A DNA stretch of 64,000 bases from a virus: the IMG/VR virus record IMGVR_UViG_3300033571_012928, positions 2,586 to 66,585 of that record, one strand, 5' to 3'. The translations under genes were made by a program, and so were the position numbers. The notes under the pieces were generated by a model. It worked only from the letters and a program-made list of their open reading frames with translations. It was not told the DNA's origin and searched no databases. Of this stretch, positions 1,915 through 43,703 are shown piece after piece (within the stretch, counting starts at the first letter, position 1; each line of letters starts with the position of its first letter).

Positions 1915-2382
1915 ATGAAAAAATTTCAATCAACAAAATTATTTGACGGCTACTCAGCTTGTTTTCGTCAATGGAAAGCAGAAGGTACTCATTGTAAATT
2001 CTTACATGGATATGCAGTAAGTTTTAGAGTATGGTTTGAAGGCGAATTAGATCACCGAAATTGGGTATTTGATTTCGGCGGAATGAAAAGAGCAAAAAAT
2101 ACAATACACGGTATGATGCCTAAAGATTACTTTGCATACTTATTAGATCACACTACAATTGTTGCTCAGGATGATCCGTACTTGGATATGTTTAAACAAA
2201 TGGATAGCGATGGTATTATTCAATTAAGAATCTTGGATAATGTAGGTTGCGAAAAGTTTGCCGAGCATTTATATACAACTATCAATGACTTTTTAGTTTT
2301 AGAAACTGAAGGTAGAGTAAAAGCTACTAGAGTAGAAGTATACGAACATGAAAGAAATTCAGCTAGCTATTCAGAACAATGA
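1915..2382 (+). CDS. 6-pyruvoyl-tetrahydropterin synthase / QueD-family protein
   Basis: HCKFLHGY corresponds to the Cx3HGH Zn-binding motif (E. coli QueD HKCGRLHGHSF); NWVFDFGGMK resembles GWIIDFAELK. Confidence 0.65.
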   Translation: MKKFQSTKLFDGYSACFRQWKAEGTHCKFLHGYAVSFRVWFEGELDHRNWVFDFGGMKRAKNTIHGMMPKDYFAYLLDHTTIVAQDDPYLDMFKQMDSDGIIQLRILDNVGCEKFAEHLYTTINDFLVLETEGRVKATRVEVYEHERNSASYSEQ

Positions 2383-2633
2383 GTGAGACATTATTTGCAA
2401 ATGGATTTGACGAAGCTATCATAGGATTAGATACATCTGATGAAGTATTTCGTGTAATATATGATAGACAAAAGATGGCAGATATTCTTGTAGAAAGAGA
2501 TGAAATGTCATCTGATGAAGCTTGGGATTATTTAGAATATAATGTATTTAATGCATATGTAGGTGATGGCACGCCAATATATGCATATGAAGGAGATCAT
2601 GAAAGAATTTTAGAATTAATGTCACAACTATAA
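2379..2633 (+). CDS. hypothetical protein
   Basis: ORF translationally coupled (ATGA overlap) to the upstream gene. Confidence 0.5.
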   Translation: MSETLFANGFDEAIIGLDTSDEVFRVIYDRQKMADILVERDEMSSDEAWDYLEYNVFNAYVGDGTPIYAYEGDHERILELMSQL

Positions 2634-2762
2634 CATGAAAACAGTAAAAAATAAAAACGGAGAAATCAAAAGATTGAGCGACAAAGAAGCTCAAAAGTTA
2701 GTATCACAAAAGCATTTAGGATGGAACTATTGTGCTAAGTCAGAATTTAAAAATCAAAACAA

Positions 2763-3011
2763 ATGAGAAAGTTCTTATACTTTAGTGCACCATGGTGTGG
2801 TCCATGTAGAATGTTCGGTCCTGTAATGGATGAACTCGGCGAGACAATGCCAGTTGAAAAGATTAGTATTGATGAAAATACAGACTTAACTAATCAATAT
2901 GGTATTCATTCTATACCAACTGTAGTATTAGTAGAAAACGAAGCTGAGATTTGGAGAAATGTAGGTGTAACATCAAAAGCAGCATTAATTGAAGCATATA
3001 ATGGAAAATAA
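2763..3011 (+). CDS. thioredoxin-like protein
   Basis: WCGPC active-site motif in FSAPWCGPCRMF; ~80 aa Trx fold length. Confidence 0.8.
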   Translation: MRKFLYFSAPWCGPCRMFGPVMDELGETMPVEKISIDENTDLTNQYGIHSIPTVVLVENEAEIWRNVGVTSKAALIEAYNGK

Positions 3012-3786
3012 AAAACCAGGTCGTATTGCCGACTATAGCAAAAAATTACCTATTTTAGAAATTTATACCTGCGTTCAATCCGAAGGTTCTAGACAAGGTA
3101 GACCTACCGTAGCAATTCGTGTTACTGGTTGTACTCATAGATGTTGGTTTGGAGAAGGCGGATGGTGCGATTCTTGGTATACTAGTATTCATCCTGAAAA
3201 AGGAATTTATTGTTTCATTGACATTATTAAGATCTATGACGAAAATCCACATATTACAGAAATGATGTTAACAGGTGGATCTCCTACAATGGTACCAGAT
3301 CTAGTAAATGAATTGACTCATTTTTGTCATGAACGTGAGATTATAATGACAATTGAAACAGAAGGTAGTCATTTTATTCAAACTGATTATCCAATTGATT
3401 TGATTAGTTTATCACCTAAATTTACAAATTCAATTCCTAAGTTAGGTGTATTGACTCCAATAGGTAAAGAAGTAGATCAAAAAATGATTGATCAACATAA
3501 CAAGTTTAGGTTGAATTATTCAGCTATCATTGAAACACTTAAGTATCATAAAGACTATCATTATAAGCCAGTATGGGATGGTACAGAGAATGGTCTAAAA
3601 GAAATTGAAGATTTTAGAAGTTTAATGAACATTCCTAAAAGTAAAACATGGTTAATGCCTGCGGGAGATACTAGAGAAACATTAGTTGAAATGTATCCTA
3701 AGTCAATTGAAATTTGTATGAAAATGGGTTACAATTGGACCGGTAGGGATCACATTATAGCCTATGACACTCGCCGAGCTGTTTAA
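2989..3786 (+). CDS. queE: 7-carboxy-7-deazaguanine synthase (QueE)-like radical SAM protein
   Basis: N-terminus LPILEIYTCVQSEGSRQGRPTVAIRVTGC parallels B. subtilis QueE IPVLEIFGPTIQGEG...FVRTAGC; Cys cluster C-THR-C...W-CDS. Confidence 0.65.
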   Translation: MKHIMENKKPGRIADYSKKLPILEIYTCVQSEGSRQGRPTVAIRVTGCTHRCWFGEGGWCDSWYTSIHPEKGIYCFIDIIKIYDENPHITEMMLTGGSPTMVPDLVNELTHFCHEREIIMTIETEGSHFIQTDYPIDLISLSPKFTNSIPKLGVLTPIGKEVDQKMIDQHNKFRLNYSAIIETLKYHKDYHYKPVWDGTENGLKEIEDFRSLMNIPKSKTWLMPAGDTRETLVEMYPKSIEICMKMGYNWTGRDHIIAYDTRRAV

Positions 3787-3838
3787 ACAGCATTAGATAC
3801 CAAACGAATTATATAACTACATAATATTTATAAATGTT

Positions 3839-4531
3839 ATGAGTTATATAAGAACCGAAAAGATTAATGGCAAGTACAAGTTCGTACATAGTCGTACATG
3901 TGATATATGCGGAAATGTATATGAAACTTTAAAAGGCAATAAAACTACAATACAATCTAAATTTAATGTATGTAGTCAACAATGTCGTAAACAGTACTAT
4001 AAGCAGACTTCATATAAAAGTATAACATGTATGAATTGTAATACAGAATTAATAGTATATAAATCAAATACTAATAAATTCTGTTCGCATACATGTTATA
4101 CTACATATGCACATAATCATCCTAGTGAATTCGGATTAACCGAACGAGCATATAATATGCATGCTAAGATGGATAAAGATGCGGCTACTAAAAAGATGTT
4201 AGCTACAAAAAAATCAAAAGGATTAATATTACATTCATTAACTGATCAAAACTTAGATTGGACGAAATATTGGAAAGTATGTAATTATTATACACGTAAG
4301 ATGCGACGAGTTATGATAGATACATGGGATGGATATGATTATATTGATGGCGAATATATTAAAGACTACTTATCATTACATTATAGTGATAAGCAATACC
4401 CGACATTAGATCATATTAAGCCTAGAAGTATATGTTTTAAAGAGGGCATGACAGTTTTAGAATGTTGCGACATAACAAACTTAGCATGGACTAAACGAAT
4501 AAATAATAGTAAAAAGTATAATAAATTCTAG
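3839..4531 (+). CDS. HNH homing endonuclease with Cys-rich zinc-finger region
   Basis: C-terminal LDHIKP...NLAWTKRINNSK is an HNH motif; several CxxC pairs. Confidence 0.65.
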   Translation: MSYIRTEKINGKYKFVHSRTCDICGNVYETLKGNKTTIQSKFNVCSQQCRKQYYKQTSYKSITCMNCNTELIVYKSNTNKFCSHTCYTTYAHNHPSEFGLTERAYNMHAKMDKDAATKKMLATKKSKGLILHSLTDQNLDWTKYWKVCNYYTRKMRRVMIDTWDGYDYIDGEYIKDYLSLHYSDKQYPTLDHIKPRSICFKEGMTVLECCDITNLAWTKRINNSKKYNKF

Positions 4532-4564
4532 GATTTATAAAAAAAAGATATTATATTAATCATT

Positions 4565-4945
4565 ATGAAGAAGTTATTAGTAACTTTATTTGCTTTAGTT
4601 TGTGTCAATATACTAAGTGCACAAATGTTTTTACGAGCAAGTGGATTAGTCATTGGTACTAAGTCACAATATACAACAGCGGTTAACTGGGGAGATGCAA
4701 AGCCTGTAGATATTTTAATTAAGGTAGAAGAAAACAAAGTAACTATTTTTAGTAAAACTACTCAGGTATATCGAAAGATTAGTTTATCGAGTAAAACAGA
4801 TTTAGCTAGTACTTATTACTGTAGTGATGCAACTGGAGGTAATTGTAACTTAACAATATTTGCAACATTAGATACTCCAGGTGCAGTTTATTTGCACGTC
4901 GAATACAGTGATATGGTATGGATGTATGTAGCAAAAGTAGAATAA
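4565..4945 (+). CDS. secreted/lipoprotein-like small protein
   Basis: N-terminal signal peptide MKKLLVTLFALVCVNILSAQ. Confidence 0.55.
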   Translation: MKKLLVTLFALVCVNILSAQMFLRASGLVIGTKSQYTTAVNWGDAKPVDILIKVEENKVTIFSKTTQVYRKISLSSKTDLASTYYCSDATGGNCNLTIFATLDTPGAVYLHVEYSDMVWMYVAKVE

Positions 4946-4946
4946 C

Positions 4947-5342
4947 ATGAATTTATTATCAACACACCCAGTTAAAAAATTAGATTTAGGATTCCACGGT
5001 AATTTATTCGGAGGTAAATTACTTTCATGGGTAGACGCTGCGGTATCAGCTTATGCAATGGAAAAGTGCAGAACACAAAATATGATTACTGTAGCAATCG
5101 ACGAATGTGTGTTTAAGAAGCCAGCTAAAGAAAAAAACTTAGTTAAAATCTACGCAGAAATGACTAAGGTAGGTAATACATCAGCTACCTTTAAAGTAGA
5201 GGCAAGAGCATATAATGTATTTAGAGGAGATGAAGTTCTTTTGTTAGCTACGAACATGACATTTGTTAGAGTAGATGATGAAGGAGTTCCTATTTCAATT
5301 TCACAATCAGTTAAAGATCAGTTTAACAAACCAAAAAAATAA
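4947..5342 (+). CDS. hotdog-fold acyl-CoA thioesterase-like protein
   Basis: LDLGFHGNLFGGKLLSWVDAAVSAYAM...TFKVEA pattern typical of 4HBT/YbgC hotdog thioesterases. Confidence 0.6.
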   Translation: MNLLSTHPVKKLDLGFHGNLFGGKLLSWVDAAVSAYAMEKCRTQNMITVAIDECVFKKPAKEKNLVKIYAEMTKVGNTSATFKVEARAYNVFRGDEVLLLATNMTFVRVDDEGVPISISQSVKDQFNKPKK

Positions 5343-5343
5343 T

Positions 5344-5718
5344 ATGTACGCGACATCAAATTCAACATTAGTAGCATCAGGCTTAACCGGAACTAACATT
5401 ACCAGTATTAACGGTACCGGAATAAGCGGTTTTACTACCAGTTCACCATCTACTACTATTAGTGGTAATTTATTAGTAGACAGTTTATCGATTTCACCAA
5501 AAAACACAAACAAATCAATTATGCAAAACAAAGTAGCAGTTTTCAAAGTAACAAGAGACGAAGACGAAAAAGTCGTTAAAACACAATTTCTAAAAGAAAT
5601 GTGGGTAGAAACCAAAAACGGACAATCAGTAGATTTCCAAGTAGCTAGAGACAAAGATTTAGCTGATTATGAAATGTCTGATTTAGTTATTAAAACAATT
5701 TTATCAGTATCATTTTAA
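5344..5718 (+). CDS. hypothetical protein (start moved to ATG 5344)
   Basis: The track ORF 5275.. overlaps the upstream gene; the in-frame ATG at 5344 immediately follows the upstream stop. Confidence 0.5.
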   Translation: MYATSNSTLVASGLTGTNITSINGTGISGFTTSSPSTTISGNLLVDSLSISPKNTNKSIMQNKVAVFKVTRDEDEKVVKTQFLKEMWVETKNGQSVDFQVARDKDLADYEMSDLVIKTILSVSF

Positions 5719-6038
5719 TGTCAGAAAAGAATCGTTTTGCAAAGCCATTAGGTGACCGAGTGTTACTTAAGAAGCCGCAGGATAATGAACAAGAAGAGAA
5801 AACAGCCTCAGGGATTTATATTCCTGAGACTGTATCTCATGAAAAAGTTCAATACACAACTGTAGTAGCTGTAGGCGAGGGATTGTTTACTCAAAACGGA
5901 GTTCCAATTCCAATGTCAGTTAAAGTAGGTGATACTGTTATTATTCCTCCATATCACCAAGGGCAAGGAGTTAAAATGGAAGGCGAAGATTATATAATCT
6001 TACGTGAGTCAGAAATTTTAATGGTTGTTCGAAATTAA
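5718..6038 (+). CDS. GroES-like co-chaperonin (Cpn10 / T4 gp31 analogue)
   Basis: KPLGDRVLLK...EEKTASGIYIP...TVVAVGEG...VKVGDTVII...GEDYIILRESEILMVV aligns with GroES along its full length. Confidence 0.85.
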   Translation: MSEKNRFAKPLGDRVLLKKPQDNEQEEKTASGIYIPETVSHEKVQYTTVVAVGEGLFTQNGVPIPMSVKVGDTVIIPPYHQGQGVKMEGEDYIILRESEILMVVRN

Positions 6039-6077
6039 TTTGGAATTCTGAAAAATAGATCTTATATTAATAGTATG
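6039..6077 (+). promoter_or_regulatory. class-A promoter-like element
   Basis: TTTGGAATTCTGAAAAATAGATCTTATATTAATAGT immediately upstream of the folE-like start. Confidence 0.4.
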
Positions 6078-6716
6078 AAAGAATTGCTTAAGTATGCAAA
6101 TTGGTCTATTCCTAGATCAGACGAAGAGAAAAAGCACATGATTGAAAATGCTGCTTTACACTATGGTAACTACATGACAGCGTTAGGTATTGATTGGGAG
6201 AATGATCCTAATTCATCTGATACTCCGATGCGTGTAGCAAAAGCATTTGTAAATGATTTAGCACAAGGATGTTATACAGATGCTCCTAAAATTACAGCAT
6301 TTGATAACTTAGATGGGTATGACGGTATTGTATTTCAAGGTAATATCGATGTTAAGTCGTTTTGCAGTCATCATCATTTGCCGTTTGTAGGACATGCACA
6401 TGTAGCTTATATTCCATCTAAAGAAGGCAAAGTAATAGGATTGTCAAAATTAAATAGAATTGTAGAATACTTTGCTCGTAGACCTCAAGTGCAAGAAAAT
6501 TTGACTATGCAAATTCATGATTACATTAATAGTGTATGTGAGGGTAATGCAGGTGTAGCAGTAATGGTTGAGGCTAATCATATGTGTGCCTGTGTAAGAG
6601 GAGTTCGTCATGATTCAACAATGATGACATCTAAAATGTCAGGTGCGTTTAAAGAAGATGGAAATGCTCGTTCAGAGTTCTATAAGTTTGTAGAAAAATT
6701 AGATAGAAACAAATAA
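6075..6716 (+). CDS. folE: GTP cyclohydrolase I
   Basis: [18 protein letters not shown] and ...MCACVRG... are diagnostic FolE Zn-binding and active-site segments. Confidence 0.9.
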
Positions 6717-7042
6717 TGGACGATATAGAAAGACGAGCTGAAATGTTTTCTATGATTGTAGATAAACTCGAAGGTAAAGACATTGTAGATAATATCTACC
6801 ATATGATTACTACATACGGTATTCCAGCAATAGCCGATGAAGAGTTTTTGATTGCATCATTAATGAAAGTATATTTAGATGCCGAAGAATATGAAAAATG
6901 TAGTATCCTTCAAAAGGGAGACTTTAAACGAAATGTATCATATGATTCGCTCGAAGACCTAGACGAAGAAACTTCAGCTGAAGACATTAAGTATTTAGTA
7001 CTTATGGGCTTTATTAAATCAATTAACATTACAACCTTATAA
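6716..7042 (+). CDS. hypothetical acidic protein
   Basis: ORF translationally coupled to folE. Confidence 0.5.
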   Translation: MDDIERRAEMFSMIVDKLEGKDIVDNIYHMITTYGIPAIADEEFLIASLMKVYLDAEEYEKCSILQKGDFKRNVSYDSLEDLDEETSAEDIKYLVLMGFIKSINITTL

Positions 7043-7046
7043 TTAA

Positions 7047-7463
7047 ATGTACGGAAAAAACGTTTGGTATGGAAGAGAAGTAGAAGGCAGATTGTCTGAT
7101 CTTCAAACGGTATTTGTCAGAAAAGGTGATTTACCTTTAGATCATGTAGAATACCCTCACATCTATTTTACAATTGAATACATAGCCGATTGTTGTAAAA
7201 ACAATCAATGGACAATTATTCATAAACTTTTAGAAACTAAAAAAATAGTTACTATTGAAGCTAACGCTGAAGTATTTGAAAAGATACCTCAGTCAGTATT
7301 TAACAGAGTTCATATTCTATATAGAATACAAGATCCTTTCTTTGAAAGACTGAAAAAGACAGATACATTGTCTATTGATGCGGGTTGGTATCGTTGTCAT
7401 CAAATCATGAAATGCAATTTGCAACAAATTGTACCAGATGATTATAAATTTGATTATCTATGA
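7047..7463 (+). CDS. hypothetical protein (weak PTPS-like H..YFT segment)
   Basis: ORF directly preceding GT-B-like paralog A. Confidence 0.45.
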   Translation: MYGKNVWYGREVEGRLSDLQTVFVRKGDLPLDHVEYPHIYFTIEYIADCCKNNQWTIIHKLLETKKIVTIEANAEVFEKIPQSVFNRVHILYRIQDPFFERLKKTDTLSIDAGWYRCHQIMKCNLQQIVPDDYKFDYL

Positions 7464-8497
7464 GCACAATCTATATAGTAGAACTAGAACCAATTGAAAG
7501 TAGATATACTGGAGAATGGAAGACACATGTACCTCAGATTATCAAAGAAGAAATTACAAAAAGAAACTTAGACACTAAACTAGTAGTAATTTCAGGTACG
7601 AATAAAATACCTAAAGCAACTACCCCAGGTGCATTTATTAACTTTGGTGGTACTAACATGTATAAGTCATCTCAGGCAATGGCAATAGCTGAGATGTTTA
7701 CATTAGGTAAAATTCAGCCCGGAGATAAGTTTTTGTATACTGATGCATGGAATCCTACAATTCTTCAAATCAAGTATATGTCTCAATTATTACAAATTCC
7801 AGTTGAGATACATGGTTTATGGCATGCAGGTAGTTACGATCCAAATGACTTTTTAGGTAGATTAATGTCTGATGAAAAATGGGTTAAATCAACCGAAGAA
7901 GCATTAGCATATGCTATTGATAAGAACTATTTCGCAACTAGTTATCATTGGAATATATTTCCTCACGTAGCTCCAGAGCAAACACAAATTGTAGGATGGC
8001 CGATGGAGTATTTAAAAGATACAATCTATGAGGTTGATAAAGTAGAAGACATTATTCTTTTTCCTCATAGAATATCAGTTGAAAAACAACCTGAACTATT
8101 CAGAGAATTAGCTAAACGTAATCCACAATACAAATGGATTATGTGTCAAGAAGAAAACTTAACTAAAGCTGAGTATCATGATTTGTTGAGTAGAGCAAAA
8201 ATAGTATTCTCAGCTAATCTTCAAGAAACATTAGGTATATCATGTTATGAAGGAGCATTAGCAGGTGCGTTGCCATTAGTGCCAGATAGATTAAGTTATT
8301 CTGAAATGTATACAGATGCATTTATGTATCCAGATAGTGCTACGATCGAAGAAATTGAAAGTATAATTCATAATATGATGTCGACATATGCAACATATCA
8401 TAAGTATGCATTACCGACCCTGTTAAAAAAATTAGATCCGTTTTTCTCAAGTCAAGAATTAGTTAACAATTTATTAGAAAATGAAAATACTTTTTGA
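7460..8497 (+). CDS. putative GT-B-fold glycosyltransferase, paralog A
   Basis: C-terminal EGALAGALPLVPD resembles the GT1 Ex7E / G-x-P motif; clear paralogy with the ORF at 12316 (WNPTILQIKY...HGLWH vs WTTNIPQIKS...YGFWH). Confidence 0.5.
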   Translation: MSTIYIVELEPIESRYTGEWKTHVPQIIKEEITKRNLDTKLVVISGTNKIPKATTPGAFINFGGTNMYKSSQAMAIAEMFTLGKIQPGDKFLYTDAWNPTILQIKYMSQLLQIPVEIHGLWHAGSYDPNDFLGRLMSDEKWVKSTEEALAYAIDKNYFATSYHWNIFPHVAPEQTQIVGWPMEYLKDTIYEVDKVEDIILFPHRISVEKQPELFRELAKRNPQYKWIMCQEENLTKAEYHDLLSRAKIVFSANLQETLGISCYEGALAGALPLVPDRLSYSEMYTDAFMYPDSATIEEIESIIHNMMSTYATYHKYALPTLLKKLDPFFSSQELVNNLLENENTF

Positions 8498-8987
8498 TGA
8501 GTTCAAATTAGAAAGAGCCGTTGGTACATTAGGTAATGTACTTGAACAGTTCCATGTTAAAAAATACATGCACGAACCTGCAGTATTTATAGGAGTGCAA
8601 AACGGAAGCTTTATGTTTTTTGCTGACTTGGTTCGTAGAACAGGATTGCAAACACAAGTTGACTTTATACGAGTAAAATCATATAATGGAACTACACAAG
8701 GTGATATTAATATGATTTATGACATTGAAATGGACGTTGAGGGTAAAGTAGTATATGTAGTAGATGACATTATCGAATCAGGAAATACTATGAAGTTTTT
8801 ACTAGAACATTTCAAATCATTAGGGGCAAAGGATGTATATTCCGTTGCTCTATTACGAAGAAAAGAAACTACATTTAAAGTTGATTTTCATGCTTTAGAT
8901 GTAGAGCAGTCCGATTGGTTAATCGGATATGGTTTAGACGATGTAGACGGATTTTTTAGACATCATCCGCGAGTTTACATAAAATAA
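8481..8987 (+). CDS. purine (HGPRT-like) phosphoribosyltransferase
   Basis: VYVVDDIIESGNTMKF is the type-I PRTase PRPP-binding motif; 168 aa. Confidence 0.75.
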   Translation: MKILFDEFKLERAVGTLGNVLEQFHVKKYMHEPAVFIGVQNGSFMFFADLVRRTGLQTQVDFIRVKSYNGTTQGDINMIYDIEMDVEGKVVYVVDDIIESGNTMKFLLEHFKSLGAKDVYSVALLRRKETTFKVDFHALDVEQSDWLIGYGLDDVDGFFRHHPRVYIK

Positions 8988-9046
8988 TAGTTTGAATAGA
9001 TACTAGGCATATTTTTAAAACAATTTAACAAAAAAGGAGAAAAATT

Positions 9047-9331
9047 ATGGTAATTACATCATTTGTTTTAGGTATGCTTACAGTTATTGGTATTGCGCTA
9101 GTTATATTAGTAGTTTTAGGTATGGTTAAGATTTACAAACAAGCAGATCAAATTAGATCACTCGTACGAGACATCGAACTTACAAATTCTAATGCCGAAC
9201 AATGGATTAGAACACTAGAAGAAACAATGTGCAGAAACTTTGATGAGGTTCGAAGAGAATATTCATCATATGTTGATTCACGTATTGACAAACTACATAC
9301 CAAGACCAATAAGGAGGTCTTGAAAGGATAA
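9047..9331 (+). CDS. small membrane protein
   Basis: One N-terminal TM helix; unusually strong SD AAAAAGGAGAAAAATTATG. Confidence 0.55.
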   Translation: MVITSFVLGMLTVIGIALVILVVLGMVKIYKQADQIRSLVRDIELTNSNAEQWIRTLEETMCRNFDEVRREYSSYVDSRIDKLHTKTNKEVLKG

Positions 9332-9397
9332 TTTATTTTGCCTAGTATCTATCAAATTATTTTGATTTTACAGTTTTATTCATTATATTAATATTAC

Positions 9398-11968
9398 ATG
9401 TATCAAAATATAGCATTTGAAAAGACAAAGAATTTAGTACACATTTGGGATGACGAAAAAGGTCATTTTACGCTTCCCTATAAAAAATATGCTTACCGTA
9501 AAAACAATAACGGTAAGTATGTTGCGTTAGATGGTAACAGAGTAGAAAAGGTTTATGATTGGGACGATTCTGATGTTCAGCGTGGTCTTATTTATGAATC
9601 TGATATTGGACCTGAAACTAGAACATTGATTGATTTATATTATGAATCAGATGATATAAGTAAAGGACATCGTGAAATGTATCTAGATATTGAGGTTGCA
9701 ACTGAAGGTGGGTTTTCTGATACCGAAGAAGTATGGCAGCCATTAACATCTATTTCATTTTATGATAGAGCAGGCGATCAATACGTTGCAATTTTAGTAG
9801 ATCCGGATAATAAGGTTAAGTCGAAGGTTTCGGATAAATTGATTTTAGAGTCTGTTAAAACAGAAAGAGAGTTAATTCAAAAGTTTCTTAATCATTATGC
9901 ATCTGTAGCACCTACAATCATCACAGGATGGAATATAGAGTTTTTCGATATTCCATATTTGTACAATAGAATTAGAAAAGTATTAGGTACAAAAGAAGCA
10001 GATAGATTATCTCCGATCAATGACGTAATTTGGCTTAAACACAGAAACCGTTATAAACTTCAAGGTGTGGCTTGTTTAGACTATATGGCATTGTATAAGA
10101 ACTTTACCTATTCAGAAGAATCAAGTTATTCATTAGAAGCTATTTCGCAAAAAGAATTAGGTAAAGGTAAAATTCAATATGAAGGTACATTAGATCACTT
10201 GTATCAAACAGATATTGATAAGTTCATCGAATATAACATTAATGACGTTCGATTGGTATATGAGTTAGATTTGAAGCTTCAGTTTTTAGATCAGGCTCGA
10301 GGTGTATGTCATAAAGGCCATGTATCATATGATGACATTTATTTCACAACAAGATATTTGGATGGAGCATGTTTAACTTACATGAAACGTTTAGGTATTG
10401 TAGCACCTAATAGAAAAAATAGAATACCAGCAACTGTAGGAACAGAAGAAGAAAATCATTCAAATGACTTTGCAGGTGCATTTGTAATGGATCCAAAGCC
10501 AGGTGTTTATAAATGGATATTTGACGAAGATATGTCATCTCTGTATCCATCTATTATTAGAACATTGAACATTTCTCCAGAAACTAAAATTGGTCGAGTT
10601 GAGAATTGGGATATGGTAAAAGGAGCGTTCTTAGCTAATCAAGATAATAGTTTATCAGTTAAACTTAAGTCTGGTATTAAACAATTGTCATTTAGTGTAA
10701 CAGAGTTTCGTAAGTATTTAGTAGATAACAAGTATACAGTATCTGCAATTGGTGTTGTATATGATTCTCAAAAGCCAGGTATTATTCCGTCTATTTTGGA
10801 AACATGGATGGCAGAACGAGAAGAGTTCCGTGCATTGGCAAAGAAATACGGTAAAGAAGGTAATATGGAGTTAGCTAAGTTTTTTGATGCTAAACAGTTA
10901 ACTGCAAAGATTATTAATAACTCGTTATATGGAGGATTGGGTGCTCCTGGATTTAGATTCCACGATTTAGATAATGCAGAATCTATTACATTGACTGGTC
11001 AGTCAGTAATTAAGCATGCAATGTCAAAAGGCAATGAATGGTTTATTAAGCAAACAGGAGTAGATAAACAATATGTAATTTATGTAGATACAGATTCTAA
11101 CTATTTCTCAGCTGAGCCTATTATAGAGTTAATGGAAAAGAAATTAGGTAAAACAATGTCGAGAGAAGAAAAAATTGACATTACCTATAAAACATCTCAG
11201 GTAGTAGAAAAGTTTATTAATGATTCATTTACTCCATATGCTAAGCATGTATTAAATTCAGATAAACATTTCTTAACGATTAAACAAGAATATGTATCAG
11301 AATCAGGTATATGGATTGCAAAGAAACGTTATGCTCAAAAGATTATTTCTGAAAAAGGTGTATTAATATCTGATTTAACCAAAGGAGCTAAAGAATGGAA
11401 ACTCGATGTAAAAGGAATGGATGTAATTCGTTCTAACTTCCCTAAAGCATTTAGAGAGTTCATGTCAGGTATTTTGATTGATATTTTAAATCTAGTAGAT
11501 AGAAAAGTAATAGATGATAAGGTATTAGCATTTAGAGAGGACATGAAACAAAAAGACATGATTGATATTATGTTCCCGACAGGTGTTAAAGAATTATCAA
11601 AATATCAAATCAAAAAAGATGCGGATCAAATGTTTGCTGATAGAGTTAAAGCTACTCCGGCTCACGTAAAGGCGGCGTTGGTCTATAATGATTTATTAGA
11701 TTATTTTAAGATTACATCAGCTCAACCAATTGGAAATGGAGAAAAGATCAAATGGACTTATTTGAAATCAAATCCATATGGTATTGATGGTATTGCGCTA
11801 AAAGGATTTGAAGATCCTGAAAAGATTGTTAAAATAGTTGAAGAGTATATTGATTATGATAAAATCTTTAGATCGTCATTAGAAAATAAATTGCAAGACT
11901 TCTATAATGCATTGAGTTATGGTAAAGTTCCTGTAAATGATACATTAAATAGTTTTTTTAGTTTTTAA
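9398..11968 (+). CDS. family-B DNA polymerase
   Basis: Exo I LDIEV, Exo II GWNIEFFDIPYL, motif A DEDMSSLYPSII, motif B KIINNSLYGGLG, motif C YVDTDS. Confidence 0.95.
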   Translation: MYQNIAFEKTKNLVHIWDDEKGHFTLPYKKYAYRKNNNGKYVALDGNRVEKVYDWDDSDVQRGLIYESDIGPETRTLIDLYYESDDISKGHREMYLDIEVATEGGFSDTEEVWQPLTSISFYDRAGDQYVAILVDPDNKVKSKVSDKLILESVKTERELIQKFLNHYASVAPTIITGWNIEFFDIPYLYNRIRKVLGTKEADRLSPINDVIWLKHRNRYKLQGVACLDYMALYKNFTYSEESSYSLEAISQKELGKGKIQYEGTLDHLYQTDIDKFIEYNINDVRLVYELDLKLQFLDQARGVCHKGHVSYDDIYFTTRYLDGACLTYMKRLGIVAPNRKNRIPATVGTEEENHSNDFAGAFVMDPKPGVYKWIFDEDMSSLYPSIIRTLNISPETKIGRVENWDMVKGAFLANQDNSLSVKLKSGIKQLSFSVTEFRKYLVDNKYTVSAIGVVYDSQKPGIIPSILETWMAEREEFRALAKKYGKEGNMELAKFFDAKQLTAKIINNSLYGGLGAPGFRFHDLDNAESITLTGQSVIKHAMSKGNEWFIKQTGVDKQYVIYVDTDSNYFSAEPIIELMEKKLGKTMSREEKIDITYKTSQVVEKFINDSFTPYAKHVLNSDKHFLTIKQEYVSESGIWIAKKRYAQKIISEKGVLISDLTKGAKEWKLDVKGMDVIRSNFPKAFREFMSGILIDILNLVDRKVIDDKVLAFREDMKQKDMIDIMFPTGVKELSKYQIKKDADQMFADRVKATPAHVKAALVYNDLLDYFKITSAQPIGNGEKIKWTYLKSNPYGIDGIALKGFEDPEKIVKIVEEYIDYDKIFRSSLENKLQDFYNALSYGKVPVNDTLNSFFSF

Positions 11969-11971
11969 AAT

Positions 11972-12319
11972 ATGAAGACAACAGTTATAGTTAAGTTACA
12001 AATCGATGGCTGCCACAATTTTCCAAAAGCAGCTGAGTTATTTCCTGAGGTAGATTTCTTATCTCACAGACACAGGCATATGTTTCATTTTACTGTTGCA
12101 GTAAAAGTTACACATTCTGATAGAGATAAAGAATTTATCATGTTGAAAAGAGATATTATCGACTATATTAATGGAGAGTACTTTGATGACTTTTCTAGAA
12201 CTTGCGAATTTGGAGCTCGTTCTTGTGAAATGTTAGCAGAAGAAATTCTTAAGGAATTTGATGCGGAATGGGTAGAGGTATGGGAAGATAATGAGAACGG
12301 GGCACGCGTTGAGTTATGA
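11972..12319 (+). CDS. QueD/PTPS-family protein (second copy)
   Basis: 115 aa; IDGCHNFP ... HRHRHMFHFTVAV resembles QueD AAHRLP ... HGHSFMVRLEI. Confidence 0.5.
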   Translation: MKTTVIVKLQIDGCHNFPKAAELFPEVDFLSHRHRHMFHFTVAVKVTHSDRDKEFIMLKRDIIDYINGEYFDDFSRTCEFGARSCEMLAEEILKEFDAEWVEVWEDNENGARVEL

Positions 12320-13329
12320 CAGTTTACGTAGTCTCTGACTTAAATCATATCATTGACAAAGATTCTTGGGAGACTCATGTATCATCAACTATTCTAGGCT
12401 ACTTAGAAGTTCTAACACAAGACCTACAAGACAGGCAATATAATGTTACTAACATAACAGACCTGTACAGTATAGAACTTCTAATCAAGTCTAACGTAAT
12501 AGTATCAGATGATATATTTGTATTTACCAATGCATGGACTACGAATATACCCCAAATCAAGTCATGGTGTGAGTACTATGAAATTACTCCAAAAATGTAT
12601 GGATTCTGGCATCAAGATATTGTATCTGCACCAGACCATACATATCCATGGCGTAAGTCATTTAATTTATCGATATGCAAATGTTTACATGGTAACTTTT
12701 TTATTTGCGAAGAACATGCCAGAGCATTTAAACACAGTATAAGTAAAGATTTGAAATCGATTCAAGTATGTAAGTTTCCAATGGAGTATTTAGGATTGGA
12801 AGTTGGTAAATTAAAAAACAACTTTAAAAAATCTGACATGTTAGTATTTCCATTTTACAATTGGGAAGAATATCATGAATCTATATTCTATGATTGGAAA
12901 CGAACATTAAAAGGAGTTCAGCCTGTATTTTGCAATGAAAAGGAACGTTTATCTAGACCGCACTTGTTAAATCAAATTGCAGCTGCGAAAGTAGCATGGT
13001 TGCCATATGATATGCCAAATTTAGGACAACAAATCTATGAATGCTTATTATTGGGTACAATTCCTATGGTACCTGATTATCATGGCTTTGAAAAGTTTGT
13101 ACCTAAAGATTTTATGTATCCAGCAGAATGGACTTCAAACGTATTAAAGTATGCAGCACATGCTCCTGATCTAATAGGAATGATCTATGAATTCACAAAT
13201 AACTATGAAGCATATAAATCTTTAATAGATCAACAAGTAGAGCATTTAACAGAGCAGTATTATGATTCGGAAGATTTTTTAAATAAAATATTTGGAAATC
13301 TAAATAAAATTCAATATATTAACAAATAA
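12316..13329 (+). CDS. putative GT-B-fold glycosyltransferase, paralog B
   Basis: Paralog of 7460..8497; ECLLLGTIPMVPD motif. Confidence 0.5.
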   Translation: MTVYVVSDLNHIIDKDSWETHVSSTILGYLEVLTQDLQDRQYNVTNITDLYSIELLIKSNVIVSDDIFVFTNAWTTNIPQIKSWCEYYEITPKMYGFWHQDIVSAPDHTYPWRKSFNLSICKCLHGNFFICEEHARAFKHSISKDLKSIQVCKFPMEYLGLEVGKLKNNFKKSDMLVFPFYNWEEYHESIFYDWKRTLKGVQPVFCNEKERLSRPHLLNQIAAAKVAWLPYDMPNLGQQIYECLLLGTIPMVPDYHGFEKFVPKDFMYPAEWTSNVLKYAAHAPDLIGMIYEFTNNYEAYKSLIDQQVEHLTEQYYDSEDFLNKIFGNLNKIQYINK

Positions 13330-13335
13330 CAAAAT

Positions 13336-14544
13336 ATGCAAAATACAGATCCAAAAAAAGTAGTTTACTTTCCATCTTTATCTTCAGGTGCATTTGCAAC
13401 TGTACTAAAGAAAGATGCAGAAATTAAACCAGGCGTACCATATCGCTTTTGGGATAAACGAACTCCTGAAGAATGGCGATATCCTTATTTTCTAGTGACA
13501 GCAGGTCATTACTACAAGAAACCTACATTGAGAGCCGATTGGGGTTTAGATAAAGATTGTTTAGTATTTGGTGATTCCGGAGGATTCCAAATTGCGACAG
13601 GTGCGTTGAAATGGGATGTAGCTTTAAGAGATACTATTTTTCAATGGTTAGAAAACAATTCAGATTTAGCAGCTAACTTAGATATTCCACCTCGTACTAA
13701 GTATGAGGGTAGATTTCAAGAAGCATTAGATTTTAGTATTGATAACTTTAAATACTTTGAAAAGAATCAATCTGGTAAGACTAGATTCTTGAATGTATCT
13801 CAAGGTTCAAATCCTAAAGAAAGAGAAGTATGGTTTAATGCCGTTAAAGATTTTGAATTTCAAGGTTGGTCATTAGGAGGTAGTCGTCGTATTGTTGACT
13901 TGTTACATGGCATTGCATTAATGTTAGAACACAAAGAGTTTGATAAATTGCATAATACATGGGTACACGTATTAGGAGCATCTAAAGTATCTGACTTTTT
14001 AGTATATGGTAAACTTCAACAAATGTTTAATCAGTATACTGATAATAGAATTACATTGTCAACTGATAGTTCATCTCCAGGTCAGTATCCTATCTTTGGA
14101 CAAATGGTTTGGGATGCAGATTGGAGAAATCATATTTTTAACATGTTGTATTTTCCAAAAGATGGTACAGTTAAATATCCTTCAGAAGGATTAGTTCCTT
14201 CTTTGTTGAAACATCCAGGTTGGGATACATTAACATGGCCAATGATTGAAGAATTCAAGGGAGATGCAGCATTTAGAATGACATATCATAATTTGTATAT
14301 GTATGCTTATACATGTGCGAAGGCTGAAGAAATTGTTACAATGGCACCTCCGAAGACAATTGAAGATATTGTATCAAAAGATATGGCAGTTGTATTGCAG
14401 TCAATAGAAGATATGTTTCATTCTTCAAATCCAATGCAGGTATTTGAAAGTTACAGAGCATTCTATGTAAAGATTGGTGGTGATAATTTACCTATTTATT
14501 CAATTGAAGCAGCTGCAGAATTTTTTGACTTTTCAACTACATAA
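13336..14544 (+). CDS. tRNA-guanine transglycosylase family protein, DpdA-like
   Basis: DCLVFGDSGGFQIATGAL matches the TGT catalytic LTDSGGFQV segment; 402 aa. Confidence 0.6.
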   Translation: MQNTDPKKVVYFPSLSSGAFATVLKKDAEIKPGVPYRFWDKRTPEEWRYPYFLVTAGHYYKKPTLRADWGLDKDCLVFGDSGGFQIATGALKWDVALRDTIFQWLENNSDLAANLDIPPRTKYEGRFQEALDFSIDNFKYFEKNQSGKTRFLNVSQGSNPKEREVWFNAVKDFEFQGWSLGGSRRIVDLLHGIALMLEHKEFDKLHNTWVHVLGASKVSDFLVYGKLQQMFNQYTDNRITLSTDSSSPGQYPIFGQMVWDADWRNHIFNMLYFPKDGTVKYPSEGLVPSLLKHPGWDTLTWPMIEEFKGDAAFRMTYHNLYMYAYTCAKAEEIVTMAPPKTIEDIVSKDMAVVLQSIEDMFHSSNPMQVFESYRAFYVKIGGDNLPIYSIEAAAEFFDFSTT

Positions 14545-15719: not shown

Positions 15720-16355
15720 ATGTACATTTACTTAATTACAAATTTAGTCAATAATAAAGTATACATCGGACAATCTTCAAGAAATTGGAATGATACGTTG
15801 GATTACTATGGTAGTGGATCTTTAATAAAAAAAGCAATTGAATCGCATGGAATTGAAAACTTTAAAAAAACATTGTTAGAAACATGTTACGATAAAGAAG
15901 AATTAGATGATGCGGAACGATATTGGATATCTCATTACCGAAATAAACTTAACTATACATTGTATAATATAACAGAAGGCGGTCAAGGCGGAGTTACGTA
16001 TACAAAAGGAAGTTTAGTATATGAACAGTGTAAACATAAATTAGGTTGTTCAGGGACTAATAATCCTGGCTCTAGACCTGAAGTAATTGAAAAACGAGTA
16101 CTTACATATAGCAATAACATTGAAAATGGGTTTGTTCCGACATCGGGTAAGATACATGGAAATTATAAAGGTAAGTTAGAACAAGTACATAGCAAATACA
16201 AAGGCGGTCCGCCGTCTAGTAATGCTAGAAAAGTTGTAATTGATGGTATAGAGTATAATTCATTACGAGAGGCAAGTCGCGCATTAGACATAGCAGCCGA
16301 AACAATCGCTAGAAGATGTAAATTGGATAAATTTAAAAAATATAACTTTATATAA
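15720..16355 (+). CDS. GIY-YIG homing endonuclease
   Basis: N-terminal YIYLITNLVNNKVYIGQS ... YYGSG matches the GIY-YIG core; sits between the clamp and clamp-loader genes. Confidence 0.8.
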   Translation: MYIYLITNLVNNKVYIGQSSRNWNDTLDYYGSGSLIKKAIESHGIENFKKTLLETCYDKEELDDAERYWISHYRNKLNYTLYNITEGGQGGVTYTKGSLVYEQCKHKLGCSGTNNPGSRPEVIEKRVLTYSNNIENGFVPTSGKIHGNYKGKLEQVHSKYKGGPPSSNARKVVIDGIEYNSLREASRALDIAAETIARRCKLDKFKKYNFI

Positions 16356-18546: not shown

Positions 18547-18797
18547 GTAAAATACAATTTCACGTAGGCATTTTGCCAGAAGACAAAGAACAATTCAATC
18601 AGCATGTTTATATGTTGAATGAGGACACTGATGAAAAATATCATGTATATGTACATGGTGGATATGATGATTTGTTTGGTTACTATCAAATGATTTGTAA
18701 AGGTTCGTGGGAAGCTTATAAATGCTTTATGCCTAAAGAAAATGAAAAGGCAGCTCACTTTGTTAAATCATTAGAACATTTCGAGGACGTAGAATGA
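18543..18797 (+). CDS. hypothetical protein
   Basis: ORF. Confidence 0.5.
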   Translation: MSKIQFHVGILPEDKEQFNQHVYMLNEDTDEKYHVYVHGGYDDLFGYYQMICKGSWEAYKCFMPKENEKAAHFVKSLEHFEDVE

Positions 18798-19402
18798 TAA
18801 TAAGTATTTCAGGTAAAATAGGATCTGGTAAAGATACTATTGCTAAATTGATTCAGGAAATGTATCCTGAACAAAATTGGATCAATAAGAAATGGGCAGG
18901 TAAACTAAAAGAAGTAGCTTCATTGATTAGTGGAATTCCAGTAGAGAAGTTTGAAGATCAAGAATTTAAACAAACTTATATGTCATCAGAATGGGATACG
19001 TATTTACCTAATGTAGATCGACCGGAAAGAATGACAGTAAGAGACTTTTTACAGATTCTAGGTACAGAAGCTATGCGAGAAGGATTGCATAGAAATACTT
19101 GGGTTAATGCTTTATTAGCCGACTATAAACCTACTCAAATCATTGATAATGAGGGTATTGTTAGATCTGTATATCCTAATTGGATTATAACAGATACTAG
19201 ATTCCCAAATGAATTGCATGCTGTTAGACAAACAGGCTTAGTATGTACAATCAAAGTAGTTCGAGATCAACAAACGGATATAGGCGCGACACATTCATCA
19301 GAAACTGCATTGGATTATGTAAGTGATTGGGATATGGTCATTGAGAACAATGGTACAATTGAAGATTTAAAAAGTCAACTTTCTCAAATAATTTTTTGGT
19401 AA
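18794..19402 (+). CDS. deoxynucleoside monophosphate kinase (T4 gp1-like)
   Basis: P-loop ISGKIGSGKDTIAKLI matches T4 gp1 LSGVKRSGKDTTADFI. Confidence 0.7.
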   Translation: MIISISGKIGSGKDTIAKLIQEMYPEQNWINKKWAGKLKEVASLISGIPVEKFEDQEFKQTYMSSEWDTYLPNVDRPERMTVRDFLQILGTEAMREGLHRNTWVNALLADYKPTQIIDNEGIVRSVYPNWIITDTRFPNELHAVRQTGLVCTIKVVRDQQTDIGATHSSETALDYVSDWDMVIENNGTIEDLKSQLSQIIFW

Positions 19403-21080: not shown

Positions 21081-22466
21081 ATGAAGAAAAAGAAAATACT
21101 TTTATTATCGGATGACCTTCGAGTTCATTCAGGGATTGGAACTATGTCCCGTGAAATTGTTCTAAACACAGTTAAAGAATTTGATTGGATTCAATTAGCA
21201 GCTGCGATTCAACATCCTGAAACAGGAAAGATGTTTGATTTGTCAGAAGAAGTTGCTAAAGTAACTGGCGTAAAAGATGCTAACGTAAAATTAATTCCAT
21301 TTGATGGATATGGCAACCAAGATGTTGTTAGAGAGTTAATTGCAGTAGAACGTCCAGATGCTATTTTGCACTTTACCGATCCTAGATTTTGGGGTTGGCT
21401 GTATCAAATGGAACATGAGATTCGTCAAGAAATTCCGTTATTTTACTATACTATTTGGGACGATAATCCAGCTCCTAGATGGAATAGACCATTTTATGAA
21501 TCTTGCGATTTATTAATGTGCATTTCAAAACAAACTAAAGCTTTAGTTACTGATGTATTGAAAGATTCAAATTATCAGCCATGGCAAATTACTTATGTGC
21601 CTCATGGTATTCCTCACGATATTTTCTTTCCATTAAATGAACAGCATGAACAGTGGAATGAATTTCAAGAATTCAAAAAGAGAATGTTAGGTGAGAAAGA
21701 ATATGACTTTATTATGTTCTACAATGCTCGAAACATTCGTCGTAAACATACACCGGATCTAATGTTAGGTTTTGAAGAATTTGTAAGTTCATTACCAAAA
21801 GAAAAACAAGATAAGTGTTTAATGTTATTGCATACAGAACCTGTAGATGAAAATGGTACGGATCTAGTTGCTGTAGCTGAAGAATGTTGCAAAACATCAA
21901 AAGTTCAATTTACTAATATTAAGCCAATATCAACTAAAGAATTAAATTTCTTGTATAACATGTCTGATATTACTGCTAATATTGCTTCAAATGAAGGATT
22001 TGGATTAGGTACAGCTGAATCGGTAATGGCAGGTACTCCAATTATAGTTAATGTAACAGGTGGAATGCAAGACCAATGTGGATTTAAAAATGAATCAGGT
22101 GAGTATTTAACAGAAGATGATTATACTCCAGCATGGCCTACAAATGCTAATGGTACATATACAGAACATGGAGAATGGGTTAAACCAATCTTCCCTAAAG
22201 CACGAACATTACAAGGTTCGCCAATGACGCCTTATATATTTGATGACATTGCAGATTATCATGAAGCTGCTAGTGCTATTAAGTATTGGTATGAAAAAAC
22301 AGATTCTGAAAGAACAGAAGCTGGTCAAAAAGGACGTGACTGGATGTTATCAGTACAAACAGGTATGTCAGCAAAAGAAATGGGTAATCGATTTATCAAA
22401 GACATGAACGTTGCATTTGATAATTGGACACCAAGATCACGTTACGAATTAGTTACAGTAAAATAA
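21081..22466 (+). CDS. GT1-family (GT-B) glycosyltransferase
   Basis: EGFGLGTAESVMAGTPIIV is the GT1 EX7E / G-x-P signature. Confidence 0.65.
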   Translation: MKKKKILLLSDDLRVHSGIGTMSREIVLNTVKEFDWIQLAAAIQHPETGKMFDLSEEVAKVTGVKDANVKLIPFDGYGNQDVVRELIAVERPDAILHFTDPRFWGWLYQMEHEIRQEIPLFYYTIWDDNPAPRWNRPFYESCDLLMCISKQTKALVTDVLKDSNYQPWQITYVPHGIPHDIFFPLNEQHEQWNEFQEFKKRMLGEKEYDFIMFYNARNIRRKHTPDLMLGFEEFVSSLPKEKQDKCLMLLHTEPVDENGTDLVAVAEECCKTSKVQFTNIKPISTKELNFLYNMSDITANIASNEGFGLGTAESVMAGTPIIVNVTGGMQDQCGFKNESGEYLTEDDYTPAWPTNANGTYTEHGEWVKPIFPKARTLQGSPMTPYIFDDIADYHEAASAIKYWYEKTDSERTEAGQKGRDWMLSVQTGMSAKEMGNRFIKDMNVAFDNWTPRSRYELVTVK

Positions 22467-22467
22467 T

Positions 22468-29634: not shown

Positions 29635-29637
29635 TTT

Positions 29638-32753: not shown

Positions 32754-32790
32754 CTTTGAAATATAAACAAAATTCATTATATTAAATCAT
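32752..32790 (+). promoter_or_regulatory. promoter-like AT-rich element (ATTATATTAA box)
   Basis: TTTGAAATATAAACAAAATTCATTATATTAAATCAT immediately 5' of the ATG. Confidence 0.35.
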
Positions 32791-43304: not shown

Positions 43305-43703
43305 ATGAAAAAAGAAATAATATACACAGAACACTATGCACTTATTGTAAGTGATGAGAAGATTGAAGAGGGTAGTTTTATTTACGAAACAAATATTGGT
43401 GAAGTAAGTAAGGTTGACAAATGGTATTGTGAAATTTTAGAAAAAGGCGTAAAAGTAGAACCTTTTGTTAAAGTAATTGCACACCGACCATTAACAAATG
43501 CACCTATTCTTGAAGGAGTTCCTTTGTTACCTGATATAGCATGGAATGACAATTCAAAACATCCTAAGTATTTTGAGTGTGAAACTATCACAATGAACAA
43601 AGGGTACACTGATAAATCAGATTATCCTTATCAAGAATGTGAAATACCAAAAACAATCACTAACTCACAAGGTCAAACAGAATTAGTAGGAACTTTTTCT
43701 TGA
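43305..43703 (+). CDS. hypothetical protein
   Basis: ORF. Confidence 0.5.
   Translation: MKKEIIYTEHYALIVSDEKIEEGSFIYETNIGEVSKVDKWYCEILEKGVKVEPFVKVIAHRPLTNAPILEGVPLLPDIAWNDNSKHPKYFECETITMNKGYTDKSDYPYQECEIPKTITNSQGQTELVGTFS

Follow-up and report, generated by a model that had tools for sequence, protein, structure and literature searches.

The DNA analyzed here comprises positions 2,586 to 66,585 of the IMG/VR virus record IMGVR_UViG_3300033571_012928, a stretch of 64,000 nucleotides that is called the window in the following. It is part of a metagenomic scaffold of 175,196 bp (ENA ERZ28594331 scaffold_29, KRAE22-1_SAMEA4981841_METAG-scaffold_29). Between positions 1,915 and 14,544 the window carries a gene cluster that seems to serve the modification of phage DNA with 7-deazaguanines. 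A preliminary description, drawn up from the sequence alone, had recognized such a pathway, consisting of FolE, QueD, QueE and a transglycosylase of the tRNA-guanine transglycosylase (TGT) family and lacking QueC, and this assignment stands.

Core genes of the cluster and their accessory partners

The genes on which the assignment is based are the following.

1915..2382, + strand: QueD (6-carboxytetrahydropterin synthase), CxxxHGY variant; PF01242 1.9e-15, 57 bits versus a cut-off of 22, and phrog_2389 1e-38
3001..3786, + strand: QueE (7-carboxy-7-deazaguanine (CDG) synthase, radical SAM enzyme) with Cx3Cx7C; phrog_2076 1e-42, TIGR03365 1.6e-14
6075..6716, + strand: FolE (GTP cyclohydrolase I); PF01227 2.3e-51, 174 bits, and NCBIfam FolE models
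11972..12319, + strand: DpdL (LSHRHRHMF), QueD paralogue and proposed CDG decarboxylase; homology to phiST CGPG_00067, motif, hhalign to QueD
13336..14544, + strand: predicted TGT-superfamily DpdA-like transglycosylase, 402 aa, with DSGGFQ; AlphaFold2 (AF2) and Foldseek, family hhalign

FolE is unambiguous at 174 bits, and the first QueD lies above the Pfam cut-off for 6-pyruvoyltetrahydropterin synthases (PTPS) in addition to its PHROG match, so that both earlier assignments hold. This QueD is 58% identical to QueD of phage phiST, and its CxxxHGY motif is common to the QueDs of phiST and phage ACP17. The open reading frame (ORF) of QueE is open from a TTG at 2989, with a probable start at the ATG at 3001 according to the gene call for the parent contig, and its product is 61% identical to phiST QueE. 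NCBIfam QueE models match it below their own cut-offs and Pfam Radical_SAM stays below threshold; the three-Cys radical-SAM triad and homology to QueE are nevertheless present. The unusual cysteine spacing noticed earlier is real, since the cluster motif reads CTHRCWFGEGGWC (Cx3Cx7C), and the triad is conserved with phiST QueE, the same spacing being found in QueEs of the metagenomic loci L003 and L005 as well. Cx3Cx7C is thus a clade trait shared with phiST QueE and occurs in a lineage whose pathway demonstrably gives deazaguanine.

QueC is absent from the searched sequence. Neither an SGGxDS nor a looser PP-loop motif occurs in the six frames of the whole window, E. coli QueC finds nothing better there than E=0.25 by tblastn and less than 5 bits by phmmer, and no QueC is among the matches listed in whole-window Pfam scans. 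The same is true for the 10 kb upstream and the about 8 kb downstream of the window on the parent contig, so that the search covered about 82 of the 175 kb of the scaffold. The earlier statement that the window lacks QueC is therefore borne out by motif, BLAST and hidden Markov model (HMM) searches and extends to about 18 kb of flanking sequence.

The ORF at 11972-12319, formerly taken for a second copy of QueD, is, judged by its sequence, DpdL. It shares 41% identity with phiST CGPG_00067 over 113-114 aa (tblastn E=2e-21, blastp E=2e-29), and its top annotated matches are those in the Cellulophaga phages phiST, phi13:1 and phi19:2. CGPG_00067 was named DpdL and proposed to be a CDG decarboxylase by Hutinet et al. 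2023 (PMC10516641). No Pfam or NCBIfam match is obtained for the ORF, which is placed in a PHROG of unknown function, and the profile of its family finds no meaningful match among PDB sequences. The window protein has FLSHRHRHMF, i.e., LxxxHRHxF in place of the CxxxHGH of QueD. When 84 DpdL sequences were compared with 38 QueD sequences by hhalign (90.6%, E=1.3e-6, 107 columns), L...HRH came to lie over C...HG, a relationship visible with deep local profiles only, shallow ones being inconclusive. Membership in the QueD family, as described earlier, is thus retained for this ORF, and what falls is its status as a plain QueD copy. In the window it occurs with FolE, QueD, QueE and the DpdA-like protein, and without QueC.

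For the transglycosylase ORF no match in Pfam, PHROGs or NCBIfam exceeds the threshold, and its family profile finds no meaningful match among PDB sequences. Its AF2 model (predicted local distance difference test (pLDDT) 88, predicted template modeling score (pTM) 0.89) finds exclusively TGT-family structures in the PDB, as all 34 of 34 Foldseek matches at E<=0.001 belong to TGT, QTRT1, ArcTGT or DpdA (7ui4, the DNA preQ0 (7-cyano-7-deazaguanine) insertase). PF01702 scores 12.2 bits for the window protein versus a gathering threshold of 26.3 and is passed, with 26.7-29.7 bits, by three of four relatives scanned (P0089, P0105 and P0120, each about 46-47% identical). The family has 499 or more metagenomic members with lengths of about 400-540 aa, and a 71-sequence profile of it aligns with E. 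coli Tgt (hhalign 92.1%, E=8e-8), placing D80, D116 and D244 over D89, D143 and D264 of Tgt; all three residues are invariant in the family alignment A1. We take the aligned Tgt residues to be the general acid/base Asp within DSGGFQ, the base-recognizing Asp and the nucleophile. With a predicted TGT fold and aligned catalytic Asp residues, the identification of a TGT/DpdA-like protein with a DSGGFQ box is upheld.

Its nearest relatives among named phage proteins are PA5oct gp168 (27% identity, E=6e-20) and ACP17 gp123 (hhalign 96%). With the phiST transglycosylase DpdA3 (CGPG_00065) there is no BLAST match and only 2.8% in a single-sequence hhalign comparison; phiST DpdA3 ranks 25th in a Foldseek search of BFVD (E=8.7e-4), and deep profiles of the two families align with 92.8% and E=4e-7. 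In that alignment four active-site motifs are in register (GDSGGFQ/lDNsA, NVxQG/cPQG, HlLG/HxLG and StDSSSP/S-DSs-P). The window protein, with 402 aa and DSGGFQ, does not share the features of the DpdA3 subfamily (phiST, CP220, immuto), i.e., about 260 aa and a first motif of the lDNsA type.

Besides these core genes, which the preliminary description had listed, the cluster contains several genes that are statistically tied to DpdL and that it had omitted, namely a glycosyltransferase of type GT4, a degenerate paralogue of it, a 138-aa protein and an enzyme of the hypoxanthine-guanine phosphoribosyltransferase (HGPRT) type. They are listed here together with the thioredoxin and DNA polymerase genes.

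2763..3011, + strand: thioredoxin; PF00085 2e-16, homologue in L005
7047..7463, + strand: conserved 138-aa protein; family of 485 proteins, with homologues in L003 and L005 beside GT4 and TGT-like genes
7460..8497, + strand: GT4-type (GT-B fold) glycosyltransferase with E256-x7-E264 intact; AF2, Foldseek, EX7E motif, homology to PA5oct gp167
8481..8987, + strand: HGPRT-type 6-oxopurine phosphoribosyltransferase (PRTase); PF00156 7.6e-21, above its cut-off, and TIGR01203 3e-32 with 111.6 bits versus a cut-off of 150
9398..11968, + strand: family B DNA polymerase (PolB); PF00136, PF03104, position kept in loci L003, L005 and L011
12316..13329, + strand: degenerate GT4 paralogue; 23% identical to 7460-8497 (E=9e-20), orthologue at 12254-13288 of L011

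For the GT4 at 7460-8497, AF2 gives a pLDDT of 87 and Foldseek finds MshA, BshA, SenB, PimA and GlgM in the PDB; E256 and E264 are invariant, and PF00534 reaches just 15.6 bits. Along its whole length the protein shares 42% identity with PA5oct gp167, and further orthologues are ACP17 gp124 and a 'glycosyltransferase' of phage Phosso. In its paralogue, whose gene separates those for DpdL and the transglycosylase, the first Glu of the EX7E motif is replaced (DMPNLGQQIYE), and no match of this ORF in Pfam, PHROGs or NCBIfam exceeds the threshold; single-sequence searches with both GT4 ORFs against PDB sequences found no match. The 138-aa protein has no match above threshold in Pfam, PHROGs or NCBIfam, none in the PDB with its family profile and none by tblastn against phages. 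The HGPRT-type enzyme retains the PRPP (phosphoribosyl pyrophosphate) loop, the catalytic acid and the purine-stacking GYG(L/I)D segment, and has Glu where E. coli has D107, an acidic residue at what we take to be the position contacting N7 of the purine. Its gene is kept beside those for FolE and PolB in L003 and L005, and all that tblastn against phages returns for it are hpt genes of a host-like kind, on records that are fragmentary or unannotated. The thioredoxin between QueD and QueE, as noticed earlier, is present; it may just serve the class II ribonucleotide reductase (RNR) encoded upstream of the window, and its link to the pathway is uncertain.

Known systems and a survey of DpdL loci

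The best-characterized relative of this cluster is that of phiST, with the order FolE-QueD-QueE-MazG-DpdL-kinase-DpdA3 (PMC10516641), which likewise lacks QueC and whose FolE, QueD and QueE are 56-61% identical to those of the window. Both share the Cx3Cx7C QueE, the CxxxHGY QueD, a DpdL orthologue with the same motif and a TGT-superfamily transglycosylase next to polymerase genes. In phiST all dG is replaced by 2'-deoxy-7-deazaguanine (dDG), with 302,000 dDG per 10^6 nucleotides, and 2'-deoxy-CDG (dCDG) was undetected (PMC10516641). The two clusters differ in the transglycosylase, DpdA3 of phiST having 259 aa as opposed to the 402-aa DSGGFQ-type protein of the window, and in their accessory genes, since the window adds GT4, its degenerate copy, the 138-aa protein and the HGPRT-type enzyme, whereas the phiST cluster includes MazG and a P-loop kinase and lacks an HGPRT-type PRTase. 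The window was searched for MazG, kinase and DpdA3 of phiST, for the dUTPase-like gene of L003 and L005 and for the IMPDH and HIT genes of L009, and none of them was found; a dUTPase/DCD-like gene is located on the contig just outside the window.

The trio of TGT-like protein, GT4 (36-42% identical) and DpdL encoded in the window recurs in ACP17 (gp123-gp124-gp125) and PA5oct (gp168-gp167-gp166), where gp167 sits between the TGT-like gp168 and the DpdL-like gp166, and in Phosso DpdL is directly followed by a GT4 orthologue. Hutinet et al. named dpdL and dpdA of ACP17 (PMC10516641). Both ACP17 and PA5oct have QueE, and ACP17 has FolE and QueD as well. They differ from the window in gene order, in TGT-like proteins related to that of the window by 27% identity or at the profile level only, and in lacking the HGPRT-type gene, the 138-aa protein and the GT4 duplicate. 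DNA of PA5oct resists restriction enzymes with G in their sites, and nucleases sensing hypermodified DNA act on this phage, which is known to have a modified G (PMC12191111). No discussion of the GT4 of ACP17 and PA5oct was found in the literature searched. More distantly, bacterial and archaeal tRNA-guanine transglycosylases and the bacterial DpdA (7ui4) have the TIM-barrel fold and the three catalytic or base-recognizing Asp residues in common with the window protein, which is 12-16% identical to them, lacks their Zn-binding CxCxxC...H and presumably acts on DNA with a QueC-independent base. The tubercidin pathway of Streptomyces resembles the window in QueC-less use of CDG, a PF00156 PRTase and a decarboxylation step. 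In contrast to that pathway, the candidate for the decarboxylation in the window is a QueD paralogue with the T-fold and not UbiD, a TGT-family enzyme is present, and the product presumably resides in DNA; of the tubercidin set (PRTase, UbiD decarboxylase, GMP reductase and Nudix hydrolase), the PRTase alone was found in the window.

With a DpdL profile at least 577 loci were found in IMG/VR, and the counts that follow refer to the best 80 of these. QueC occurs in none of the 80. GT4 is present in 61 of them (60 by HMM), with the motif E..E in 37, D..E in 23 and a degenerate form in one, and 42 copies are situated within 300 nt of DpdL. All 42 loci with a TGT-like gene of the window type are GT4 loci. 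DpdA3 of the phiST type is encoded in 14 loci, 8 of them with a phiST-type kinase, and never together with GT4 (0/80; Fisher p=8e-12, uncorrected for relatedness). A PRTase gene is found in 20 loci of both architectures, and the 138-aa protein in 33, none of the DpdA3 type. Conversely, three loci picked through GT4 homologues alone all have DpdL, in addition to QueE, FolE or a TGT-like gene. The DpdL nearest to that of the window in IMG/VR (69% identity) belongs to a DpdA3-type locus, so that the split into two architectures does not simply mirror two clades of DpdL. L30, H34, R35, H36 and F38 are kept in at least 87% of the compared DpdL sequences, in GT4-type and DpdA3-type loci alike, which suggests that DpdL catalyzes one and the same reaction in both types and that these diverge only at a later step.

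The surveyed loci display further variation. In 19 GT4/DpdL loci (L059, L068, L087 and 16 others), which are compact FolE-QueE-QueD-DpdL-GT4 clusters, no TGT-family gene is detectable within reach; of three that were scanned, one has a QueF-like protein and one a protein of the uracil-DNA glycosylase (UDG) superfamily. In L009 (1172-5460), genes for DpdL, GT4, a PF00156 PRTase, an IMPDH/GMP-reductase-family protein (PF00478) and a HIT hydrolase adjoin each other, with QueE in addition, a set reminiscent of tubercidin-type 7-deazapurine chemistry at the nucleotide level. Both L010 (6225-12433) and L011 (5220-7964) encode an ADH_N-domain protein and an unknown protein of about 300 aa beside GT4, and L010 also a PP-loop NAD-synthase-like protein, a Rieske protein, a cytidylyltransferase-like protein, UDP-glucose dehydrogenase and S-adenosylmethionine synthetase; the extra genes of these two GT4/DpdL clusters suggest further diversity in tailoring. 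The close relatives L003 and L004 possess the TGT-like protein, GT4, the 138-aa protein and the PRTase, with no DpdL within 10 kb on either side. L003 (2929-3594), and L004 as well, encodes an unrelated PTPS of 221 aa with canonical CxxxHGH and a C-terminal extension.

Predicted pathway and nature of the final base

On balance, the cluster is probably a 7-deazaguanine DNA modification module of a large lytic phage in which a QueC-independent DpdL route replaces genomic guanine, dDG being the expected core product. In a first step, FolE, QueD and QueE would convert GTP to CDG, as in the established queuosine pathway and in line with their solid homology. CDG would not be converted to preQ0 because QueC is absent. 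Following the proposal made for phiST, DpdL, in which Leu takes the place of the catalytic Cys, would then decarboxylate CDG to 7-deazaguanine (DG). The TGT-fold protein, as its intact residues and the mechanism of its family suggest, would insert the deazaguanine base in place of G once the phage DNA has been replicated and so free guanine, which, as we infer, the HGPRT-type enzyme most plausibly recycles via GMP to GTP and thus back to FolE. By analogy with phiST, dDG probably reaches high or complete substitution, and dCDG would be expected as an intermediate at most.

Several points weigh against this interpretation. The decarboxylase function of DpdL is a proposal, in phiST as well as here, and expression of dpdL together with dpdA from phiST or ACP17 in E. 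coli gave no dDG (Hutinet et al., PMC10516641). By its sequence the transglycosylase belongs to the clade of ACP17 gp123 and PA5oct gp168 and not to phiST-type DpdA3, and it is devoid of the Zn-binding CxCxxC motif, the segment over E. coli CDCYTC reading LLKHPGWDTLTW with no cluster of Cys residues. The search for QueC reached only the part of the parent contig given above. Finally, the presence of GT4, a partner that phiST lacks, points to a possible difference between the end product and plain dDG, and in the literature searched no DNA chemistry for any phage of the GT4 type was found. GT4 could be an accessory that the pathway requires, or it could transfer a sugar to the base; the former is suggested by the failure of dpdL and dpdA of ACP17 to give dDG in E. 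coli when gp124 was left out.

The second of these roles leads to the most serious alternative, which we regard as possible and still clearly less probable than plain dDG. It states that GT4 uses an NDP-sugar, possibly from the phage's own sugar block, to glycosylate the base or the modified DNA, so that a glycosyl-7-deazaguanine and not dDG would result. Its frequency in the survey (60-61 of 80 loci with an intact (E/D)x7E motif, 42 copies within 300 nt of DpdL), its strict avoidance of phiST-type DpdA3 and its location between transglycosylase and DpdL in ACP17 and PA5oct tie GT4 to the pathway, and its predicted GT-B/GT4 fold and the sugar-nucleotide and glycosyltransferase block in the window would suit such a reaction. 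In the pathways to huimycin and dapiramicin, 7-deazaguanine bases are substrates of glycosyltransferases with GT4 domains (bioRxiv 10.64898/2026.04.15.718813), and PA5oct is attacked by nucleases that sense hypermodified DNA (PMC12191111). In contrast, plain 7-deazaguanine offers no obvious hydroxyl acceptor at C7, and a sugar at N2 would sit in the minor groove. The proteins closest to GT4 in structure have small molecules and not DNA as substrates, nothing like the sugar-biosynthesis block of the window occurs near the clusters of ACP17 and PA5oct, and no glycosylated deazaguanine in DNA was found in the literature searched.

Far less probable is a pre-replicative route of the tubercidin kind, in which the PRTase would couple CDG or DG to PRPP, DpdL would decarboxylate at the level of the base or the nucleotide, RNR, a dNMP kinase and host kinases would lead to 7-deaza-dGTP, and PolB would incorporate it, leaving another role to the TGT-like protein. 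The tubercidin pathway indeed dispenses with QueC and employs a PRTase on CDG before a decarboxylase, PF00156 PRTases recur in DpdL clusters of both architectures (20/80), and in L009 GT4 and DpdL are accompanied by a PRTase, an IMPDH/GMP-reductase-family protein and a HIT hydrolase. In addition, MazG and a P-loop kinase belong to the phiST cluster, a dNMP kinase is encoded in the window (18794-19402) and a class II RNR and the dUTPase/DCD-like protein on the contig, and the 19 GT4/DpdL loci mentioned above have no TGT-family gene in reach. Against this route speaks that the N7-contacting acidic residue and the HGPRT hallmarks would fit guanine or hypoxanthine and not a 7-deazapurine, that an apparently intact TGT-family enzyme is conserved in the cluster, that the window contains neither MazG nor a phiST-type kinase nor a dGTPase, and that the PRTase is absent from ACP17 and phiST.

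Slightly less likely still is the reading of the preliminary description, according to which CDG is the end point of the pathway and is itself inserted by the transglycosylase, giving dCDG in the virion. It accords with the absence of QueC from the searched sequence and with the status of the DpdL decarboxylase role as a proposal only, and insertion of CDG has precedents, as a DpdA2 is able to insert it, with low efficiency, in a queC mutant of E. coli, and an archaeal virus contains traces of dCDG (PMC10516641). However, DpdL is present and conserved, and its strong conservation over at least 577 viral loci makes it unlikely to be idle. As phiST, with the same core genes and likewise without QueC, replaces dG by dDG and contains no detected dCDG (PMC10516641), the deduction of dCDG from the lack of QueC is superseded, and dDG or a derivative of it is the more likely base. 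A tRNA-directed role in queuosine formation was rejected, because the genes are part of a replication module and include DpdL, and because none of QueC, QueF and QueA was found in the searched sequence.

Genomic setting and significance of GT4-containing clusters

The window has a GC content of about 32%, and practically every gene is encoded on the + strand. A megablast search of the region against 50,697 deposited phages gave zero matches, so that there is no close cultured relative. The replication module of the phage encloses the modification genes, with gp32, a RecA/UvsX-type recombinase, DnaB and the class II RNR, the latter just outside the window, on the 5' side, PolB in the middle and clamp and clamp loader on the downstream side. 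The order QueD-QueE-Cpn10-FolE-PRTase-PolB-(138-aa protein)-(DpdL)-GT4-TGT-like-clamp is kept in metagenomic relatives in which the TGT-like protein is only 45-51% identical. Within the deazaguanine cluster there are also a 4HBT thioesterase (4947-5342) and a GroES/Cpn10 co-chaperonin (5718-6038), the latter holding the same position in L003, L005 and L011, and 3' of QueE an HNH-like protein (3839-4531) with a 58% identical counterpart in L005. A GIY-YIG/I-TevI-like homing endonuclease is encoded between the clamp and clamp-loader genes (15720-16355). A gene for ribosomal protein S21 (PF01165; 8563-8754 of the parent contig L093) is located some 1.4 kb before the window begins, between the class II RNR gene and the dUTPase/DCD-like gene, and S21 is found on the independent contig L094 as well.

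A block of nucleotide-sugar and glycosyltransferase genes extends over about 13-15 kb (21081-36656) and comprises four epimerase/dehydratase genes, RmlD-like, Polysacc_synt_2 and GDP-mannose dehydratase-like proteins, a PIG-L deacetylase, a hexapeptide acyltransferase, several GT2 and GT1 enzymes and FkbM/MT_24 methyltransferases. It could be the source of a donor for GT4 or could glycosylate something else, and comparable blocks exist in the relatives L003 and L004. Further downstream, genes for a PRPP-synthetase-like protein (44169-45017; PF00156/PF14572), a nucleoside 2-deoxyribosyltransferase-like protein (45929-46423; PF15891, 7e-37) and a NAMPT/NAPRTase-family protein (46493-47989; PF04095, 2e-36) are clustered, and this arrangement (44169-47989) resembles phage modules for NAD+ salvage or reconstitution that counter NAD-depleting defenses. 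The first two of these proteins were considered as members of the deazaguanine pathway and set aside, as they belong to this separate NAMPT-containing module 30 kb away. An apparent RNA-repair set consists of a metallophosphoesterase (42643-43299), an AAA_33 kinase-like protein (43700-44164), a receiver domain of the cyclic-phosphate-processing type (cREC_REC; 48038-48460), an RNA ligase with an OB domain (48486-49625) and a PolyA_pol/CCA-adding-like nucleotidyltransferase (53286-54044).

The QueC-less DpdL pathway and dDG were already published in 2023 (PMC10516641). Near-obligate pairing of GT4 with DpdL, mutual exclusivity of GT4 and DpdA3 and the recurrence of an HGPRT-type enzyme and of the 138-aa protein were not found described in the literature searched. 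Tentatively, and with clearly less confidence than we attach to the DpdL route itself, we suggest that the GT4-containing DpdL clusters (61/80, including those of this phage, ACP17, PA5oct and Phosso) make a 7-deazaguanine that is glycosylated or depends on GT4 and has not been described before. If this were true, GT4 and the large TGT-like enzyme would constitute a functional alternative to the kinase and DpdA3 pair of phiST, and the missing GT4 would explain why dDG could not be reconstituted from dpdL and dpdA of ACP17 alone.

7-Deazaguanines shield phage DNA from restriction enzymes and from some CRISPR systems, and END nucleases and Dag glycosylases are dedicated defenses that sense them. 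To our knowledge, the chemistry of the QueC-less DpdL branch is known only from the phiST group and the Vibrio phage VP1, and this branch is the least understood among those making 7-deazaguanines. Most DpdL clusters differ from that of phiST in having GT4 (61 of the 80 surveyed), a larger TGT-family enzyme, the 138-aa protein and often an HGPRT-type enzyme. Study of this widespread type of cluster could close the gap in the dDG pathway or bring to light a hypermodified purine that is new.

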